Of a stretch of DNA of 64,000 nt, positions 1,845 to 57,968 are shown piece after piece. A program made the position numbers and the translations under genes. Source of the stretch: Escherichia coli (lineage in GTDB: Bacteria > Pseudomonadota > Gammaproteobacteria > Enterobacterales > Enterobacteriaceae); NCBI RefSeq assembly GCF_050920415.1, contig NZ_CP169309.1, one strand, 5' to 3'. Below the pieces are notes generated by a model. That model was not told the DNA's origin. It did no database searches and worked only from the letters and a program-made list of their open reading frames with translations. Positions within the stretch are counted from its first letter, which is position 1, and every line of letters starts with the position of its first letter.

Positions 1845-3779
1845 ATGGCGAAAAACCTAATACTCTGGCTGGTCATTGCCGTTGTGCTGATGTCAGTATT
1901 CCAGAGCTTTGGGCCCAGCGAGTCTAATGGCCGTAAGGTGGATTACTCTACCTTCCTACAAGAGGTCAATAACGACCAGGTTCGTGAAGCGCGTATCAAC
2001 GGACGTGAAATCAACGTTACCAAGAAAGATAGTAACCGTTATACCACTTACATTCCGGTTCAGGATCCGAAATTACTGGATAACCTGTTGACCAAGAACG
2101 TCAAGGTTGTCGGTGAACCGCCTGAAGAACCAAGCCTGCTGGCTTCTATCTTCATCTCCTGGTTCCCGATGCTGTTGCTGATTGGTGTCTGGATCTTCTT
2201 CATGCGTCAAATGCAGGGCGGCGGTGGCAAAGGTGCCATGTCGTTCGGTAAGAGCAAAGCGCGCATGCTGACGGAAGATCAGATCAAAACGACCTTTGCT
2301 GACGTTGCGGGCTGCGACGAAGCAAAAGAAGAAGTTGCTGAACTGGTTGAGTATCTGCGCGAGCCGAGCCGCTTCCAGAAACTCGGCGGTAAGATCCCGA
2401 AAGGCGTCCTGATGGTCGGTCCTCCGGGTACCGGTAAAACGCTGCTGGCGAAAGCGATTGCAGGCGAAGCGAAAGTTCCGTTCTTTACTATCTCCGGTTC
2501 TGACTTCGTAGAAATGTTCGTCGGTGTGGGTGCATCCCGTGTTCGTGACATGTTCGAACAGGCGAAGAAAGCGGCTCCGTGCATCATCTTTATCGATGAA
2601 ATCGACGCCGTAGGCCGCCAGCGTGGCGCAGGTCTGGGCGGTGGTCACGATGAACGTGAACAGACTCTGAACCAGATGCTGGTTGAGATGGATGGCTTCG
2701 AAGGTAACGAAGGTATCATCGTTATCGCTGCGACTAACCGTCCGGACGTTCTCGACCCGGCGCTGCTGCGTCCTGGCCGTTTCGACCGTCAGGTTGTGGT
2801 TGGCTTGCCAGATGTTCGCGGCCGTGAGCAGATTCTGAAAGTTCACATGCGTCGCGTACCATTGGCACCCGATATCGACGCGGCAATCATTGCCCGTGGT
2901 ACTCCTGGTTTCTCCGGTGCTGACCTGGCGAACCTGGTGAACGAAGCGGCACTGTTCGCTGCTCGTGGCAACAAACGTGTTGTGTCGATGGTTGAGTTCG
3001 AGAAAGCGAAAGACAAAATCATGATGGGTGCGGAACGTCGCTCCATGGTGATGACGGAAGCGCAAAAAGAATCGACTGCTTACCACGAAGCAGGTCACGC
3101 GATTATCGGTCGCCTGGTGCCGGAACACGATCCGGTGCACAAAGTAACGATTATCCCGCGCGGTCGTGCGCTGGGTGTGACCTTCTTCTTGCCTGAGGGC
3201 GACGCAATCAGCGCCAGCCGTCAGAAACTGGAAAGCCAGATTTCTACGCTGTACGGCGGTCGTCTGGCTGAAGAGATCATCTACGGGCCGGAACATGTTT
3301 CTACCGGGGCGTCCAACGATATTAAAGTTGCGACCAACCTGGCGCGTAACATGGTTACCCAGTGGGGCTTCTCTGAGAAACTCGGTCCGCTGCTGTATGC
3401 GGAAGAAGAAGGTGAAGTGTTCCTCGGTCGTAGCGTAGCGAAAGCGAAACATATGTCCGATGAAACGGCACGCATCATCGACCAGGAAGTGAAAGCACTG
3501 ATCGAGCGTAACTATAATCGTGCGCGTCAGCTTCTGACCGACAACATGGATATTCTGCATGCGATGAAAGATGCTCTCATGAAATATGAGACTATCGACG
3601 CACCGCAGATTGATGACCTGATGGCACGTCGCGATGTACGTCCGCCAGCGGGCTGGGAAGAACCAGGCGCTTCTAACAATTCTGGCGACAATGGTAGTCC
3701 AAAGGCTCCGCGTCCGGTTGATGAACCGCGTACGCCGAACCCGGGTAACACCATGTCAGAGCAGTTAGGCGACAAGTAA
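1845..3779 (+). CDS. ftsH: ATP-dependent zinc metalloprotease FtsH
   Basis: 644 aa from [10 protein letters not shown]; Walker [12 protein letters not shown] region, HEAGH zinc motif; track ORF starts 9 nt upstream at TTG. Confidence 0.95.
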
Positions 3780-3810
3780 GTTCCCGCATTAGATGACTGT
3801 ATTTGTACTG

Positions 3811-3844
3811 AAAACCCCGGGGCGTGCTCCGGGGTTTTTTCTTA
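3811..3844 (+). terminator. rho-independent terminator downstream of ftsH
   Basis: aaaaccccggggcgtgctccggggtttttt hairpin plus U tract. Confidence 0.7.
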
Positions 3845-3868
3845 TCAATTCATACCAGGGATAACATC

Positions 3869-4717
3869 ATGAAACTCTTTGCCCAGGGCACTTCACTGGA
3901 CCTTAGCCATCCTCACGTAATGGGGATCCTCAACGTTACGCCTGATTCCTTTTCGGATGGCGGCACGCATAACTCGCTGATAGATGCGGTGAAACATGCG
4001 AATCTGATGATTAACGCTGGCGCGACGATCATTGACGTTGGTGGCGAGTCCACGCGCCCAGGGGCGGCGGAAGTTAGCGTTGAAGAAGAGTTGCAACGTG
4101 TTATTCCTGTGGTTGAGGCAATTGCTCAACGCTTCGAAGTCTGGATCTCGGTAGATACTTCCAAACCAGAAGTCATCCGTGAGTCAGCGAAAGTTGGTGC
4201 TCACATTATTAACGATATTCGCTCCCTTTCCGAACCTGGCGCTCTGGAAGCTGCTGCAGAAACCGGTTTGCCAGTTTGCCTGATGCATATGCAGGGAAAT
4301 CCAAAAACCATGCAGGAAGCCCCGAAGTATGACGATGTCTTTGCGGAAGTGAATCGCTACTTTATTGAGCAAATAGCACGTTGCGAGCAGGCGGGTATCG
4401 CAAAAGAGAAATTGTTGCTCGACCCCGGATTCGGTTTCGGTAAAAATCTCTCCCATAACTATTCATTACTGGCGCGCCTGGCTGAATTTCACCATTTCAA
4501 CCTGCCGCTGTTGGTGGGTATGTCACGAAAATCGATGATTGGGCAATTGCTGAACGTGGGGCCGTCCGAGCGCCTGAGCGGTAGTTTGGCCTGTGCGGTC
4601 ATTGCCGCAATGCAAGGTGCGCACATCATTCGTGTTCATGACGTCAAAGAAACCGTAGAAGCGATGCGGGTGGTGGAAGCCACTCTGTCTGCAAAGGAAA
4701 ACAAACGCTATGAGTAA
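3869..4717 (+). CDS. folP: dihydropteroate synthase
   Basis: 282 aa from [32 protein letters not shown]. Confidence 0.95.
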
Positions 4718-6621: not shown

Positions 6622-6708
6622 GCCGAGGTGGTGGAATTGGTAGACACGCTACCTTGAGGTGGTAGTGCCCAATAGGGCTTACGGGTTCAAGTCCCGTCCT
6701 CGGTACCA
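6622..6708 (+). tRNA. leuU: tRNA-Leu (anticodon GAG)
   Basis: GCCGAGGTGGTGGAATTGGTAGACACGCTACCTTGAGGTGGTAG...GGTTCAAGTCCCGTCCTCGGTACCA, 87 nt with long variable arm and encoded CCA. Confidence 0.95.
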
Positions 6709-12616: not shown

Positions 12617-12693
<77 letters not shown>

Positions 12694-12815
12694 CTTTCCC
12701 TTAGAGTCCTTTTTCAAATATACTGTGAAGACTTCGGCCTTCGTAGTGGGATTTGAAAAAATCCTTCTGGAAAGTGCTCCAGACCGCAGTTGCGGTTATA
12801 GGGTTCAGTTATATA

Positions 12816-12885
12816 AAGCCCCGATTTATCGGGGTTTTTTGTTATCTGACTACAGAATAACTGGGCTTTAGGCCCTTTTTTTATG
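12816..12885 (+). terminator. two tandem hairpin-U tract terminators/attenuators between metY and rimP
   Basis: aaagccccgatttatcggggttttttg and gggctttaggcccttttttt. Confidence 0.65.
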
Positions 12886-14891: not shown

Positions 14892-17564
14892 ATGACAGAT
14901 GTAACGATTAAAACGCTGGCCGCAGAGCGACAGACCTCCGTGGAACGCCTGGTACAGCAATTTGCTGATGCAGGTATCCGGAAGTCTGCTGACGACTCTG
15001 TGTCCGCACAAGAGAAACAGACTTTAATTGACCACCTGAATCAGAAAAATTCAGGCCCGGACAAATTAACGCTGCAACGTAAAACCCGCAGCACCCTTAA
15101 CATTCCTGGTACCGGTGGAAAAAGCAAATCGGTACAAATCGAAGTCCGCAAGAAACGCACCTTTGTGAAACGCGATCCGCAAGAGGCTGAACGCCTTGCT
15201 GCGGAAGAGCAGGCGCAGCGTGAAGCGGAAGAGCAAGCCCGTCGTGAGGCAGAAGAATCGGCCAAACGCGAGGCGCAACAAAAAGCTGAACGTGAGGCCG
15301 CAGAACAAGCTAAGCGTGAAGCCGCTGAACAAGCGAAACGTGAAGCTGCGGAAAAAGACAAAGTGAGCAATCAACAAGACGATATGACTAAAAACGCCCA
15401 GGCTGAAAAAGCCCGCCGTGAGCAGGAAGCTGCAGAGCTCAAGCGTAAAGCTGAAGAAGAAGCGCGTCGTAAACTCGAAGAAGAAGCACGTCGCGTTGCT
15501 GAAGAAGCACGTCGTATGGCGGAAGAAAACAAATGGACTGATAACGCGGAACCGACTGAAGATTCCAGCGATTATCACGTTACTACTTCTCAACATGCTC
15601 GCCAGGCAGAAGACGAAAGCGATCGTGAAGTCGAAGGCGGCCGTGGCCGTGGTCGTAACGCGAAAGCAGCGCGTCCGAAGAAAGGCAACAAACACTCTGA
15701 ATCAAAAGCTGATCGTGAAGAAGCACGCGCAGCAGTACGTGGCGGTAAAGGCGGAAAACGTAAAGGTTCTTCGCTGCAGCAAGGCTTCCAGAAGCCAGCT
15801 CAGGCCGTTAACCGTGACGTTGTGATTGGCGAAACCATCACCGTTGGTGAACTGGCGAACAAGATGGCGGTTAAAGGTTCTCAGGTCATCAAAGCGATGA
15901 TGAAACTGGGCGCAATGGCAACCATCAACCAGGTTATCGATCAGGAAACCGCACAGCTGGTTGCTGAAGAGATGGGCCACAAGGTTATCCTGCGTCGTGA
16001 AAACGAGCTGGAAGAAGCGGTAATGAGCGACCGTGACACAGGTGCTGCGGCTGAACCGCGCGCGCCGGTTGTGACCATCATGGGTCACGTTGACCACGGT
16101 AAAACCTCTTTGCTGGACTACATTCGTTCAACGAAAGTGGCCTCTGGCGAAGCGGGCGGCATTACCCAGCACATTGGTGCATACCACGTTGAAACTGAAA
16201 ACGGCATGATCACCTTCCTGGACACCCCGGGGCACGCCGCGTTTACTTCAATGCGTGCACGTGGTGCGCAGGCAACGGACATCGTAGTCCTGGTTGTTGC
16301 TGCCGACGACGGCGTAATGCCGCAGACCATCGAAGCAATTCAGCACGCGAAAGCGGCAGGCGTGCCGGTTGTGGTTGCAGTGAACAAGATCGACAAACCA
16401 GAAGCCGATCCAGATCGCGTTAAGAACGAACTCTCCCAGTACGGCATCCTGCCGGAAGAGTGGGGCGGTGAAAGCCAGTTCGTACACGTGTCTGCGAAAG
16501 CAGGTACCGGTATCGATGAACTGCTGGACGCTATCCTGTTGCAGGCAGAAGTTCTGGAACTGAAAGCGGTACGTAAAGGTATGGCGAGCGGTGCGGTTAT
16601 CGAATCCTTCCTCGATAAAGGTCGTGGTCCGGTTGCTACCGTTCTGGTACGTGAAGGTACTCTGCACAAGGGCGACATCGTTCTGTGTGGTTTCGAATAC
16701 GGTCGTGTTCGCGCAATGCGTAACGAAATGGGTCAGGAAGTGCTGGAAGCAGGTCCGTCCATTCCAGTTGAAATCCTTGGCTTGTCCGGTGTTCCGGCAG
16801 CGGGTGACGAAGTTACCGTAGTGCGTGACGAGAAGAAAGCACGTGAAGTTGCACTGTATCGTCAGGGCAAATTCCGTGAAGTTAAACTGGCACGTCAGCA
16901 GAAATCGAAACTCGAGAACATGTTCGCTAACATGACCGAAGGCGAAGTTCACGAAGTGAACATCGTTCTGAAGGCAGACGTTCAGGGTTCCGTGGAAGCG
17001 ATCTCCGACTCCTTGCTGAAACTGTCTACTGACGAAGTTAAAGTGAAGATCATCGGTTCTGGCGTAGGTGGTATCACCGAAACCGACGCTACCCTGGCTG
17101 CGGCGTCCAACGCCATCCTGGTTGGTTTCAACGTACGTGCTGATGCCTCTGCACGTAAAGTGATTGAAGCGGAAAGCCTGGATCTGCGTTACTACTCCGT
17201 CATCTATAACCTGATCGACGAAGTGAAAGCGGCGATGAGCGGTATGCTGTCTCCGGAACTGAAACAGCAGATTATCGGTCTGGCGGAAGTTCGTGATGTG
17301 TTCAAATCACCGAAATTTGGTGCCATCGCAGGTTGTATGGTTACTGAAGGTGTGGTTAAACGTCACAATCCGATCCGCGTTCTGCGCGACAACGTGGTTA
17401 TCTACGAAGGCGAGCTGGAGTCCCTGCGCCGCTTCAAAGATGACGTTAACGAAGTCCGTAACGGTATGGAATGTGGTATCGGCGTTAAGAACTACAACGA
17501 CGTCCGCACTGGCGATGTGATCGAAGTATTCGAAATCATCGAGATCCAACGTACCATCGCTTAA
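14892..17564 (+). CDS. infB: translation initiation factor IF-2
   Basis: 890-aa ORF with charged repeat-rich N-terminal region and GTPase domain ([21 protein letters not shown]). Confidence 0.95.
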
Positions 17565-17581
17565 GGTTTTTAGGGTTCTAT

Positions 17582-17650
17582 GCGGGATAAGGCGTTTACG
17601 CCGCATCCGGCATGGATTGCCTGATGCGACGCTGGCGCGTCTTATCAGGC
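17582..17650. repeat. REP (repetitive extragenic palindromic) elements
   Basis: gcgggataaggcgtttacgccgcatccggca and gcctgatgcgacgctggcgcgtcttatcaggc. Confidence 0.8.
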
Positions 17651-17685
17651 TACGTGAACAGCCCTTCTAACTGAAATTAATTTTA

Positions 17686-19124: not shown

Positions 19125-19490
<366 letters not shown>

Positions 19491-19506
19491 TTCTTGCGAG
19501 TTTCAG

Positions 19507-19534
19507 AAAAGGGGCCTGAGTGGCCCCTTTTTTC
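19507..19534 (+). terminator. rpsO rho-independent terminator
   Basis: aaaaggggcctgagtggccccttttttc. Confidence 0.8.
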
Positions 19535-19735
19535 AAACTGACGGCAGCAATTCACTGGAAACTAATGTATTGTTGCTATGAATGATCTTCCGTTGCAGAG
19601 GTTCGCGCGGCTAATGAGAGGCTTTACCCACATTGGGCTGGGTTAGGGTTGTCATTAGTCGCGAGGATGCGCAGAAGATCGGGTATTAACACCAGTGCCG
19701 TAAGGTGCTGTCTAAGAAAGAGAAAGGATATTACA

Positions 19736-23043: not shown

Positions 23044-24933
23044 ATGGCTGAATTCGAAACCACTTTTGCAGATCTGGGCCTGAAGGCTCCTATCCTTGAA
23101 GCCCTTAACGATCTGGGTTACGAAAAACCATCTCCAATTCAGGCAGAGTGTATTCCACATCTGCTGAATGGCCGCGACGTTCTGGGTATGGCCCAGACGG
23201 GGAGCGGAAAAACTGCAGCATTCTCTTTACCTCTGCTGCAAAATCTTGATCCTGAGCTGAAAGCACCACAGATTCTGGTGCTGGCACCGACCCGCGAACT
23301 GGCGGTACAGGTTGCTGAGGCAATGACGGATTTCTCTAAACACATGCGCGGCGTAAACGTGGTTGCCCTGTACGGCGGCCAGCGTTATGACGTGCAATTA
23401 CGCGCCCTGCGTCAGGGGCCGCAGATCGTTGTCGGTACTCCTGGCCGTCTGCTGGATCACCTGAAACGTGGCACTCTGGACCTCTCTAAACTGAGCGGTC
23501 TGGTTCTGGATGAAGCTGACGAAATGCTGCGCATGGGCTTCATCGAAGACGTTGAAACCATTATGGCGCAGATCCCGGAAGGTCATCAGACCGCTCTGTT
23601 CTCTGCAACTATGCCGGAAGCGATTCGTCGCATTACCCGCCGCTTTATGAAAGAGCCGCAGGAAGTACGCATTCAGTCCAGCGTGACTACCCGTCCTGAC
23701 ATCAGCCAGAGCTACTGGACTGTGTGGGGGATGCGTAAAAACGAAGCGCTGGTACGTTTCCTGGAAGCGGAAGATTTTGATGCGGCGATTATCTTCGTTC
23801 GTACTAAAAACGCGACTTTGGAAGTGGCAGAAGCTCTTGAGCGTAACGGCTACAACAGCGCTGCACTGAACGGTGACATGAACCAGGCGCTGCGTGAGCA
23901 GACTCTGGAACGCCTGAAAGATGGTCGTCTGGATATCCTGATTGCGACCGACGTTGCGGCCCGTGGCCTGGACGTTGAGCGTATCAGCCTGGTAGTTAAC
24001 TACGATATCCCGATGGATTCTGAGTCTTACGTTCACCGTATTGGTCGTACCGGCCGTGCGGGGCGTGCTGGTCGCGCACTGCTGTTCGTTGAGAACCGCG
24101 AGCGTCGTCTGCTGCGCAACATTGAACGCACTATGAAGCTGACCATTCCGGAAGTAGAACTGCCGAACGCAGAGCTGCTGGGCAAACGCCGTCTGGAAAA
24201 ATTCGCCGCTAAAGTACAGCAGCAGCTGGAAAGCAGCGATCTGGATCAATACCGTGCACTGCTGAGCAAAATTCAGCCGACTGCAGAAGGTGAAGAGCTG
24301 GATCTCGAAACTCTGGCAGCCGCACTGCTGAAAATGGCACAGGGTGAACGTACTCTGATCGTGCCGCCAGATGCGCCGATGCGTCCGAAACGTGAATTCC
24401 GTGACCGTGATGACCGTGGTCCGCGCGATCGTAACGACCGTGGCCCGCGTGGCGGCCGTGAAGATCGTCCGCGTCGTGAACGTCGTGATGTTGGCGATAT
24501 GCAGCTGTACCGTATTGAAGTGGGCCGCGATGATGGTGTTGAAGTTCGTCATATCGTTGGCGCGATTGCTAACGAAGGCGACATCAGCAGCCGTTACATC
24601 GGTAACATCAAGCTGTTTGCTTCTCACTCCACCATCGAACTGCCGAAAGGTATGCCGGGTGAAGTGCTGCAACACTTTACGCGTACTCGCATTCTCAACA
24701 AGCCGATGAACATGCAGCTGCTGGGCGATGCACAGCCGCATACTGGTGGTGAGCGTCGTGGTGGTGGTCGTGGTTTCGGTGGCGAACGTCGTGAAGGCGG
24801 TCGTAACTTCAGCGGTGAGCGCCGTGAAGGTGGTCGTGGTGATGGTCGTCGTTTCAGCGGCGAACGTCGTGAAGGCCGCGCGCCGCGTCGTGATGACTCT
24901 ACTGGTCGTCGTCGTTTCGGTGGTGATGCGTAA
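23044..24933 (+). CDS. deaD: cold-shock DEAD-box RNA helicase DeaD (CsdA)
   Basis: 629 aa from [21 protein letters not shown]; motifs [25 protein letters not shown]; RG/RGG-rich C-terminal tail. Confidence 0.95.
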
Positions 24934-26332: not shown

Positions 26333-26436
26333 GCGGTGCCTTATCCGACATTTCTGCTGCCTACACAATGCCTGATGTGCTTCGCTTATCAGGCCTAGGT
26401 AGGACAGCGTTGCCAGCTCGGATAAGGCTTCCCACG
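26333..26436. repeat. REP elements
   Basis: gcctgatgtgcttcgcttatcaggcctag and ggataagg palindromic units. Confidence 0.75.
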
Positions 26437-32763: not shown

Positions 32764-33804
32764 ATGACTGGTCAGTCTTCATCTCAGGCGGCAACGCCCA
32801 TTCAGTGGTGGAAACCCGCGCTTTTCTTTCTCGTTGTCATTGCTGGTCTCTGGTATGTGAAATGGCAACCTTACTACGGCAAAGCGTTTACCGCCGCCGA
32901 AACTCACAACATCGGTAAATCAATACTCTCACAGGCGGATGCTAATCCGTGGCAGGCGGCGTTGGATTACGCGATGATCTATTTCCTCGCGGTATGGAAA
33001 GCGGCGGTGCTGGGAGTGATCCTCGGGTCGTTGATTCAGGTGCTGATCCCTCGTGACTGGCTGCTGCGTACGCTTGGGCAATCGCGCTTTCGCGGCACGC
33101 TGCTGGGAACGCTGTTTTCGCTGCCGGGCATGATGTGTACTTGCTGTGCGGCACCGGTCGCGGCGGGGATGCGTCGCCAACAGGTGTCGATGGGCGGGGC
33201 GCTGGCATTCTGGATGGGCAATCCGTTGTTAAATCCGGCGACGCTGGTGTTTATGGGTTTTGTCCTCGGCTGGGGCTTTGCGGCGATTCGTCTGGTGGCG
33301 GGACTGGTGATGGTGTTGCTGATTGCGACCCTGGTGCAAAAATGGGTGCGTGAAACACCGCAAACACAGGCACCGGTCGAAATTGATATGCCGGAAGTGC
33401 AGGGCGGATTCTTTAGCCGCTGGGGTAGGGCGCTATGGACGCTTTTCTGGAGTACGATCCCGGTATATATCCTTGCCGTACTGGCGTTGGGTGCCGCTCG
33501 CGTCTGGTTATTCCCCCATGCCGATGGTGCTGTCGATAACAGCCTGATGTGGGTGATTGCGATGGCGGTAGCGGGATGCTTGTTTGTCATTCCCACGGCA
33601 GCAGAAATTCCGATTGTACAAACGATGATGCTGGCAGGTATGGGAACCGCTCCGGCGCTGGCATTGTTGATGACGCTTCCTGCTGTAAGTTTGCCGTCGC
33701 TGATAATGTTGCGTAAAGCGTTCCCGGCGAAAGCCTTATGGCTGACGGGTGCGATGGTGGCGGTGTCTGGTGTGATTGTCGGCGGGCTGGCGCTGTTGTT
33801 CTGA
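32764..33804 (+). CDS. yraQ: permease-family inner membrane protein YraQ
   Basis: 346-aa polytopic membrane ORF with CxxCC motif (MCTCCAAPVAAGM). Confidence 0.85.
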   Translation: MTGQSSSQAATPIQWWKPALFFLVVIAGLWYVKWQPYYGKAFTAAETHNIGKSILSQADANPWQAALDYAMIYFLAVWKAAVLGVILGSLIQVLIPRDWLLRTLGQSRFRGTLLGTLFSLPGMMCTCCAAPVAAGMRRQQVSMGGALAFWMGNPLLNPATLVFMGFVLGWGFAAIRLVAGLVMVLLIATLVQKWVRETPQTQAPVEIDMPEVQGGFFSRWGRALWTLFWSTIPVYILAVLALGAARVWLFPHADGAVDNSLMWVIAMAVAGCLFVIPTAAEIPIVQTMMLAGMGTAPALALLMTLPAVSLPSLIMLRKAFPAKALWLTGAMVAVSGVIVGGLALLF

Positions 33805-33816
33805 TTTGAGGGAAAA

Positions 33817-33998
33817 CATGTCGGATGCGGCGTAAACGCCTTATCCGACCTACGGTTTGCATCGTTGCAGGCCTGATAAGACGCGGCAAGCGTCGCATCA
33901 GGCAACGGCAGTCGGATGCGGCGCAGGCGCCTTATCCGACCTACGGTTTGTGTCGTGTAGGCCTGATAAGACGCGGCAAGCGTCGCATCAGGCATTAC
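33817..33998. repeat. BIME/REP cluster (about 4 REP units)
   Basis: Alternating gtcggatgcggcg...cgccttatccgac and gcctgataagacgcggcaagcgtcgcatcaggc palindromes. Confidence 0.9.
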
Positions 33999-34007
33999 AA
34001 GGTGCTG

Positions 34008-34583
34008 CTATTTAATAAACGTAAACGCTGTGGTTACACGTTTTACGCCGCTCACCCGACTGGCAATATCTGCCGCCGCTTTCGCTTCACGTTCAGTCAC
34101 CAGCCCCATCAGGAACACTTCACCGTTTTCGGTGGTCACTTTCACGTTGGACGATTTCACCAGGTCGCTGGTTAAGAGCTGCGAACGCACTTTGGTGGTG
34201 ATCCACGTATCGTTAGACGCTTCGCCCAGACCAATCGGCTGGCCCTGACGAATCTCGTTATACACTTCGTTGGCACCGTCTACGCCCATAGCAATCTGTT
34301 TGGCGCGAGCCGAAAGTTCAGCGTTTGGTGACTGCCCAACCAGCAGCACTTTGCCCTGATAGGCCGTTACATTAATGCGTGCTTCTTTCTTGATTTGTTC
34401 GTCTTTCGACAATGCGCTGTTCACGCGCACTTCCAGGGTTCCATCATCCACCTGGGTGCCGACACTGCGTGGGTCAGTTGCGGCTTTTGTACCCACAGCC
34501 GCGGTGCCCACTACGGCGGCAGCAACGCAACCTTGCAACAGCAGTGCGGAAATAAGGACTGCGATTGGCGATAATGCCTTCAT
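34008..34583 (-). CDS. dolP: BON-domain outer membrane lipoprotein DolP (YraP)
   Basis: 191-aa ORF with signal peptide and lipobox LLQGC. Confidence 0.9.
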   Translation of the reverse strand: MKALSPIAVLISALLLQGCVAAAVVGTAAVGTKAATDPRSVGTQVDDGTLEVRVNSALSKDEQIKKEARINVTAYQGKVLLVGQSPNAELSARAKQIAMGVDGANEVYNEIRQGQPIGLGEASNDTWITTKVRSQLLTSDLVKSSNVKVTTENGEVFLMGLVTEREAKAAADIASRVSGVKRVTTAFTFIK

Positions 34584-57320: not shown

Positions 57321-57697
<377 letters not shown>

Positions 57698-57742: not shown

Positions 57743-57968
57743 GAGGAGGGTGGTCGGAAAGATGAACGTCTTATCTGGCCTACAAAACAACGAAAATTTA
57801 ATATATTGCACAGAGGAAATGTAGGCCTGATAAGCGTAGCGCCTCAGGCAATTTTGTGTTTATCATCAGTCTCGAACCTGCTTCGGCAAGCTTTTACTTT
57901 TGGTGCAGACGGAAAGATGAACGAGTATCTAAGCTATTAATAATAGACTTTGCAAGAAATCATTACAT

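Follow-up and report, generated by a model that had tools for sequence, protein, structure and literature searches.

In this stretch of Escherichia coli DNA, yraQ and dolP converge on a spacer that holds a BIME-2 made of two Y-Z2 pairs of REP units, which probably works mainly at the RNA level as a two-way 3'-end hairpin element and which probably represents the ancestral two-pair state. REP and BIME elements have been described since the 1980s. In the 64,000-nt stretch of DNA that was analysed, referred to below as the window, the permease gene yraQ lies at 32764-33804 on the plus strand, according to both the list of open reading frames and the RefSeq annotation of a near-identical record. 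It is faced on the minus strand by dolP (yraP) at 34008-34583, identified by NCBIfam NF008247 with 324.6 bits against a cutoff of 184 and by RefSeq. The gene names were taken from the annotation of that record, NZ_CP169399.1 (E. coli MFDS1022581), in which 2 of 44,001 bases differ from the window. Beyond dolP, the RefSeq annotation gives diaA, yraN and lpoA in this order, and DiaA was also named by NCBIfam.

The array extends from 33820 to 33993 and contains four REP units in the order Y(+), Z2(-), Y(+), Z2(-), forming two tandem Y-Z2 pairs of 91 and 90 nt that fill the 203-nt spacer. Units were typed by scoring them against the Y, Z1 and Z2 consensus sequences of Durrant et al. 2024 (PMC11208160). 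Unit 1 (33820-33853, plus strand, GTCGGATGCGGCGTAAACGCCTTATCCGACCTAC) is of Y type with 33 of 35 consensus positions; its 13-bp stem includes a G:T pair and a C/T mismatch, its loop is TAAA, and the hairpin (33820-33849) is followed by a CTAC tail. A 13-nt linker, GGTTTGCATCGTT (33854-33866), joins units 1 and 2 at their CTAC/GTAG-proximal ends. Unit 2 (33867-33903, minus strand, GCCTGATGCGACGCTTGCCGCGTCTTATCAGGCCTGC) matches the Z2 consensus at 34 of 37 positions and has a 14-bp stem with the G:T pair and the C/T mismatch, a TTGCC loop, and GCAG in place of GTAG. The two pairs meet head to head at a 7-nt junction, AACGGCA (33904-33910), which is missing in one-pair alleles. The second pair starts with a Y unit (unit 3, 33911-33944, plus strand, 29 of 35 positions) carrying a CAGG loop and a CTAC tail. 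A 12-nt linker, GGTTTGTGTCGT (33945-33956), leads to unit 4 (33957-33993, minus strand), a Z2 unit with GTAG that matches the consensus at 35 of 37 positions and the search pattern without mismatch.

Stems of 13-14 bp are thus found in all four units, which share the G:T pair and C/T mismatch at stem positions 8-9, and the GTAG/CTAC foot is present in three of them (units 1, 3 and 4), the GCAG of unit 2 being a one-base variant. The first-pass annotation had described a BIME array of about four units between yraQ and dolP at 33817-33998; the consensus matches and the alternating orientation bear this out, its limits falling within 3-5 nt of the unit boundaries. The pattern search and REP consensus alignment that it had proposed as a check revealed palindromic structure in the array and aligned all four units. 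Allowing up to 3 mismatches, the REP-style patterns matched the window only at this array and at a site downstream of infB, with 0 matches expected from 100 shuffles. Tandem Repeats Finder returned the array as the top-scoring one of the window (score 301, period 91, 1.9 copies, 91% matches), and the two pairs show about 7 differences from each other. One strand is predicted to fold at -101.4 kcal/mol and the other at -92.6 kcal/mol, both well below shuffled controls (z -5.7 and -6.35, respectively). Related sequences are dispersed, since the REP part of an 801-nt query finds 9 matching places in the median E. coli genome.

The consensus matches, the GTAG/CTAC foot, the stem mismatch, the extragenic position and the dispersed genomic copies place the units among REPs. 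Both the stem mismatch and GTAG are needed for binding by the REP-associated tyrosine transposase (RAYT) (PMC3333891). BIME-2 elements were defined by alternating Y and Z2 units, short linkers and tandem copies whose number varies between strains (Ton-Hoang et al. 2012, PMC3333891). The array is a BIME-2, an already catalogued and ordinary kind of element, because its Y and Z2 units alternate in inverse orientation, its linkers measure 13, 7 and 12 nt, and its pairs occur in tandem; the linkers lack the L motif and the copy number varies among strains. Compared with the BIME-2 family in the Gilson/Bachellier/Hofnung classification, nothing of substance differs, two copies being at the small end of the range.

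The first-pass annotation had also proposed comparing the copy number at this site among strains, and the locus indeed turned out to be polymorphic, with one pair, two pairs or none. We surveyed 5,426 complete E. coli genomes with a junction-spanning query and a strict E-value, as BLAST coverage alone cannot count pairs (a single pair matches both halves of the query, giving 99% coverage over a 711-bp span). A spacer with REP, whatever the number of pairs, was found in 4,996 of the 5,426 genomes (92.1%), and two or more pairs in 321 (5.9%), which by subtraction leaves about 4,675 genomes (about 86%) with one pair. A filler query detected a non-REP sequence, at one place per genome, in 429 of 5,426 (7.9%), and REP itself is thus dispensable at this locus. 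With a query made of the flanks only, 5,400 of 5,424 genomes showed a single joined match, with spans of about 523, 531 and 613 bp corresponding to the three alleles; no three-pair span appeared among the 59 rows of this query that were sampled. The exact allele of the window is rare, with 4 records at least 99% identical over 801 bp.

Individual strains illustrate these alleles. One Y-Z2 pair is present in K-12 MG1655, where the site is catalogued as REP240, and in NCTC9022 (112-nt spacer), while two pairs are found in the window and in strain 4012. REP240 shares with the window the locus, the flanks, the Y and Z2 units and a locus-specific GTCGG...CCGAC/CTGAC stem variant, but it has one pair in a 113-nt spacer, whereas the 203-nt spacer of the window holds two pairs, the AACGGCA junction, the CAGG loop in the second Y unit and GCAG in unit 2. 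Strain Z0117EC0032 carries no REP at the locus, and a 121-nt unrelated filler (positions 606-726 of locus sequence L004) occupies the spacer, with a hairpin made of CCCCTCTCCCC, a TTT loop and GGGGAGAGGG, followed by GGGTGAGGGG. This single-copy filler allele, also present in locus sequence L058, replaces the last codons of yraQ and dolP as well.

The K-12 pair corresponds exactly to pair 1 of strain 4012, whose two Z2 units have the same sequence. A deletion between these Z2 direct repeats in the 4012 form therefore yields exactly the K-12 allele, while the reverse route must invent the 7-nt junction. In a DNA-pattern scan of species representatives, E. whittamii and Escherichia SCPM-O-B-8794 (labelled E. 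coli) both showed two pairs with the AACGGCA junction of the window, and the two-pair form is probably old because these two lineages have it, junction included, in common. Taken together, the sequences moderately favour a two-pair state ancestral in Escherichia, from which the one-pair allele would have been derived by deletion between the identical Z2 repeats, a polarity that rests on few sequences and leaves out E. albertii, whose locus sequence stops before dolP. In SCPM-O-B-8794, lineage-specific substitutions (loop TTAA, CCGATCTACAGTTTGCG) are found in both pairs, and only 2 substitutions separate one pair from the other, which suggests concerted evolution or gene conversion between tandem pairs.

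The same slot was then compared in 35 Enterobacteriaceae outside Escherichia that have convergent yraQ and dolP, with spacers of 41-214 nt. A hairpin of at least 8 net pairs occurs in 91% of these spacers and in 21% of shuffles, and a hairpin of at least 10 pairs in 60% and 4%, respectively. The sequences that form these hairpins are diverse. In Kosakonia, Huaxiibacter and some Enterobacter, the slot holds a bidirectional terminator organised as A-tract, GC stem and T-tract; about 6 such terminator-like hairpins were picked by eye in the relatives, as their A and T tracts pair with each other and merge into the stems. Some spacers of Enterobacter, Pseudescherichia, Citrobacter amalonaticus and Klebsiella carry a REP type proper to the genus, with a foot resembling CTAC. 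Hairpins of the CCCTCTCCC/GGGAGAGGG type, resembling the E. coli filler, were found in Enterobacter sp. ENT03, Phytobacter massiliensis and Franconibacter helveticus. We also observed that in Enterobacteriaceae bacterium RIT714 the spacer reaches 1,309 nt, compared with the usual 50-200 nt or so, and contains an apparent AT-rich coding insert with CCCTCTCCC-type hairpins on its flanks.

Like the bidirectional intrinsic terminators, the array lies between convergent genes, but its REP hairpins have no U-tract, and canonical intrinsic termination is thus unlikely. Neither promoters nor T-run terminators were detected in the array when both strands were scanned; three weak terminator-like calls fall within the end of yraQ. 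A canonical intrinsic terminator was rejected, the REP hairpins being devoid of flanking A or T tracts. In K-12, REP240 nevertheless figures as no. 263 among the bidirectional terminators listed for log and stationary phase, and lies between convergent genes (10.64898/2026.03.23.713779, supplement). The hairpin of this entry is the Z2 unit, which has no U-tract, and the entry may mark a processed or protected 3' end and not true termination. The same work associates REPs located between convergent genes with a higher expression of both and describes REP325 as a terminator and mRNA stabiliser (10.64898/2026.03.23.713779); REP effects on half-life and termination are reported as context-dependent.

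From the properties of the REP class and of the K-12 counterpart, which is a one-pair allele, we infer that the array works mainly as RNA, and its likeliest role is that of a two-way 3'-end hairpin element. Transcripts reading through the end of yraQ or of dolP would end in stable REP hairpins without a U-tract. These hairpins could make the polymerase pause or favour a partly Rho-dependent termination, and they would block 3'-to-5' exonucleases. As an outcome, convergent read-through would be limited and the yraQ and dolP mRNAs would both be stabilised.

The hairpins could in addition act on translation. The TGA stop of yraQ is separated from unit 1 by 15 nt, and the stop of dolP from the stem of unit 4 by 14 nt. 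Because both stops lie within the reported 15-nt range, the first hairpin on either side may dampen translation termination too, stalling the terminating ribosomes and lowering the amounts of YraQ and DolP. Such a damper would be compatible with the 3'-end role, and it is in line with the reported downregulation of translation by REPs closer than 16 nt to a stop (Liang et al. 2015, summarised in PMC12306157). However, both gaps fall right at the reported threshold, and dolP is well expressed in K-12 RNA-seq (published supplement, baseMean 2264), so that we consider this additional effect tentative and rather doubtful.

Another explanation could be that the array is a purely selfish or neutral repeat, placed and amplified by RAYT or by recombination and tolerated without any local function. 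The variation in pair number (one or two), the 429 genomes with unrelated filler, the dispersal of REPs over a median of 9 matching places per genome and the ability of RAYT to cleave and recombine BIMEs in vitro (PMC3333891) are all consistent with this explanation. However, the presence of a strong hairpin in 91% of the spacers of other genera and in the E. coli filler argues for selection on the hairpin irrespective of where it came from, and in K-12 a bidirectional terminator has been reported at this site (10.64898/2026.03.23.713779). A repeat without local function is thus unlikely, and the two-way 3'-end hairpin element remains our preferred reading of the locus.

The array also gives a match to the Rfam family naRNA4 (RF02564) at 33870-33941 on the minus strand, covering a Y hairpin, the junction and a Z2 hairpin, with 70.7 bits against a gathering threshold of 59.5. 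Since naRNA4 was described from a Y/Z2 array, REP325 (PMC4550694), the array could be viewed as a naRNA4-like sRNA gene whose Y-junction-Z2 transcript would bind HU and contribute to nucleoid organisation. The RF02564 alignment shows that the model itself joins a Y hairpin to a Z2 hairpin through a linker, so it describes simply a Y-Z2 REP pair, and the pair found after infB scores likewise. The Y-linker-Z2 unit is common to REP325/naRNA4 and the window, but the junction linker is 7 nt in the window against about 13 nt in the Rfam model, and REP325 comprises six pairs inside an operon whereas the window has two pairs between convergent genes. The match needs the head-to-head junction; it is present in the window and in strain 4012 and absent from the filler allele and from the one-pair allele carried by 86% of E. 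coli. Moreover, REP325 and naRNA4 do not compact the nucleoid according to a 2026 preprint (10.64898/2026.03.23.713779). An independent sRNA gene was rejected, the promoter scan showing no promoter-like site nearby. The naRNA4 match is a REP-class match and does not count as evidence for a separate sRNA gene, and a nucleoid-organising RNA made from this array is highly improbable.

The first-pass annotation had stated that such arrays bind gyrase and IHF, and the second half of this statement does not hold here. BIME-1 elements associate Y and Z1 units across a long L linker, often with an IHF site, and are single-copy (PMC3333891). The window array has in common with them a Y REP and an extragenic position. 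It differs by the absence of Z1, of the L linker and of an IHF site, and by not being single-copy: the partner units are of Z2 type (34-35 of 37 positions), the linkers, at 7-13 nt, fall far short of the length of an L motif, and the IHF consensus WATCAANNNNTTR has no match within 26 kb of the array, the 3 matches in the window being at chance level. An IHF-binding BIME-1 (RIB/RIP element), a reading that comes solely from the general statement that BIMEs bind IHF and that nothing found locally favours, therefore deserves practically no credence. As the first-pass annotation had already concluded from the lack of unique spacers, the array is not a short CRISPR or a degenerate CRISPR remnant: despite its palindromic repeats and regular spacing, the units alternate in orientation and type and fit the REP consensus, the 7-13-nt linkers are themselves repeated, and the neighbours are housekeeping genes with no cas genes nearby.

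The gyrase half of the statement stands as a property of the class. Gyrase cleavage sites are enriched in BIME-2, with a preference for Y units (PMC6379681); the part of the gyrase Topo-Seq supplement text that was searched (PMC6379681) does not mention the names yraQ or yraP. By analogy with the class, the array is likely a preferential site for gyrase at the DNA level; the REP-associated tyrosine transposase would also use it as a substrate, and IS1397 and IS621 as a target. In unit 4, ATCAGGCCTAC at 33957-33967 on the minus strand is the natural target of IS621 (sequence taken from PMC11208160), and unit 2 has a one-base variant of it. In about 24 of the 5,424 genomes examined with the flanks-only query, the yraQ and dolP flanks are separated by something large; the insertion was identified in one of these strains, Z1323HEC0300, where an IS1397-family IS3 element (locus sequence L127, positions 2450-3996) sits in the Z2 loop of a one-pair allele with duplication of GCAA. 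The description of such arrays as IS insertion hotspots is thus confirmed at the yraQ-dolP locus itself.

Four REP sites were found in the window, and the yraQ-dolP array is the largest REP cluster among them, in line with the first-pass annotation. This annotation had further pointed to smaller REP sites after infB and mtr; both are real, and it had missed a third one after rnpB. The site 3' of infB (17578-17655) consists of a Y unit on the minus strand (17578-17612) and a Z2 unit on the plus strand (17619-17655), arranged head to head, and is a naRNA4 match too. Between the convergent mtr and yhbW genes lies a Z1-like single REP (26370-26399, plus strand, 27 of 30 consensus positions), which corresponds to the 29-nt REP241 catalogued in K-12 at the mtr/yhbW site (10.64898/2026.03.23.713779, supplement). 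Two 12-nt inverted arms, GCCTTATCCGAC and CTCGGATAAGGC, which resemble half-Y units, enclose this REP, and the whole segment (26338-26430) folds as a single long composite hairpin (-47.6 kcal/mol, z -5.2). The missed site is a Z1 single REP located about 120 nt 3' of rnpB (57820-57853, minus strand), which carries ATCAGGCCTAC. Just upstream of it, a half-REP remnant, GAACGTCTTATCTGGCCTAC (57764-57783, plus strand), was also absent from the earlier annotation.

Other repeats and structured RNAs of the window are of ordinary kinds. Rfam matches at gathering level were obtained at 6622-6705, 12617-12690, 12782-12882, 19163-19277, 19506-19677 and 57321-57697; they correspond to two tRNAs, the rimP leader, the S15 leader, SraG and RNase P RNA, as expected in a K-12-like region. 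In-frame tandem repeats of 24 and 21 nt within infB (15201-15527) and a 33-nt repeat of the GGTGGTGAGCGTCGTGAAGG type within deaD (24745-24840), which codes for an RGG-like tail, are ordinary coding repeats.

For annotation, the array should be recorded as a BIME-2, neither as an sRNA gene despite its naRNA4 match nor with IHF binding credited to it. Beyond this correct annotation the significance is small, the K-12 locus being already catalogued as REP240, and the allelic series is mildly interesting. It is decidedly unlikely, though conceivable, that dolP and yraQ expression or convergent read-through differs in level between the two-pair, one-pair and filler alleles, or that the two-pair form yields an HU-binding RNA. 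If true, allele-dependent expression would amount to natural variation in the regulation of an envelope-stress lipoprotein gene whose coding and promoter sequences stay unchanged. At this locus, natural alleles form a small series (no REP, one pair, two pairs and IS1397-disrupted), which could offer a ready test of the effects of REPs located between convergent genes on transcript ends and expression.
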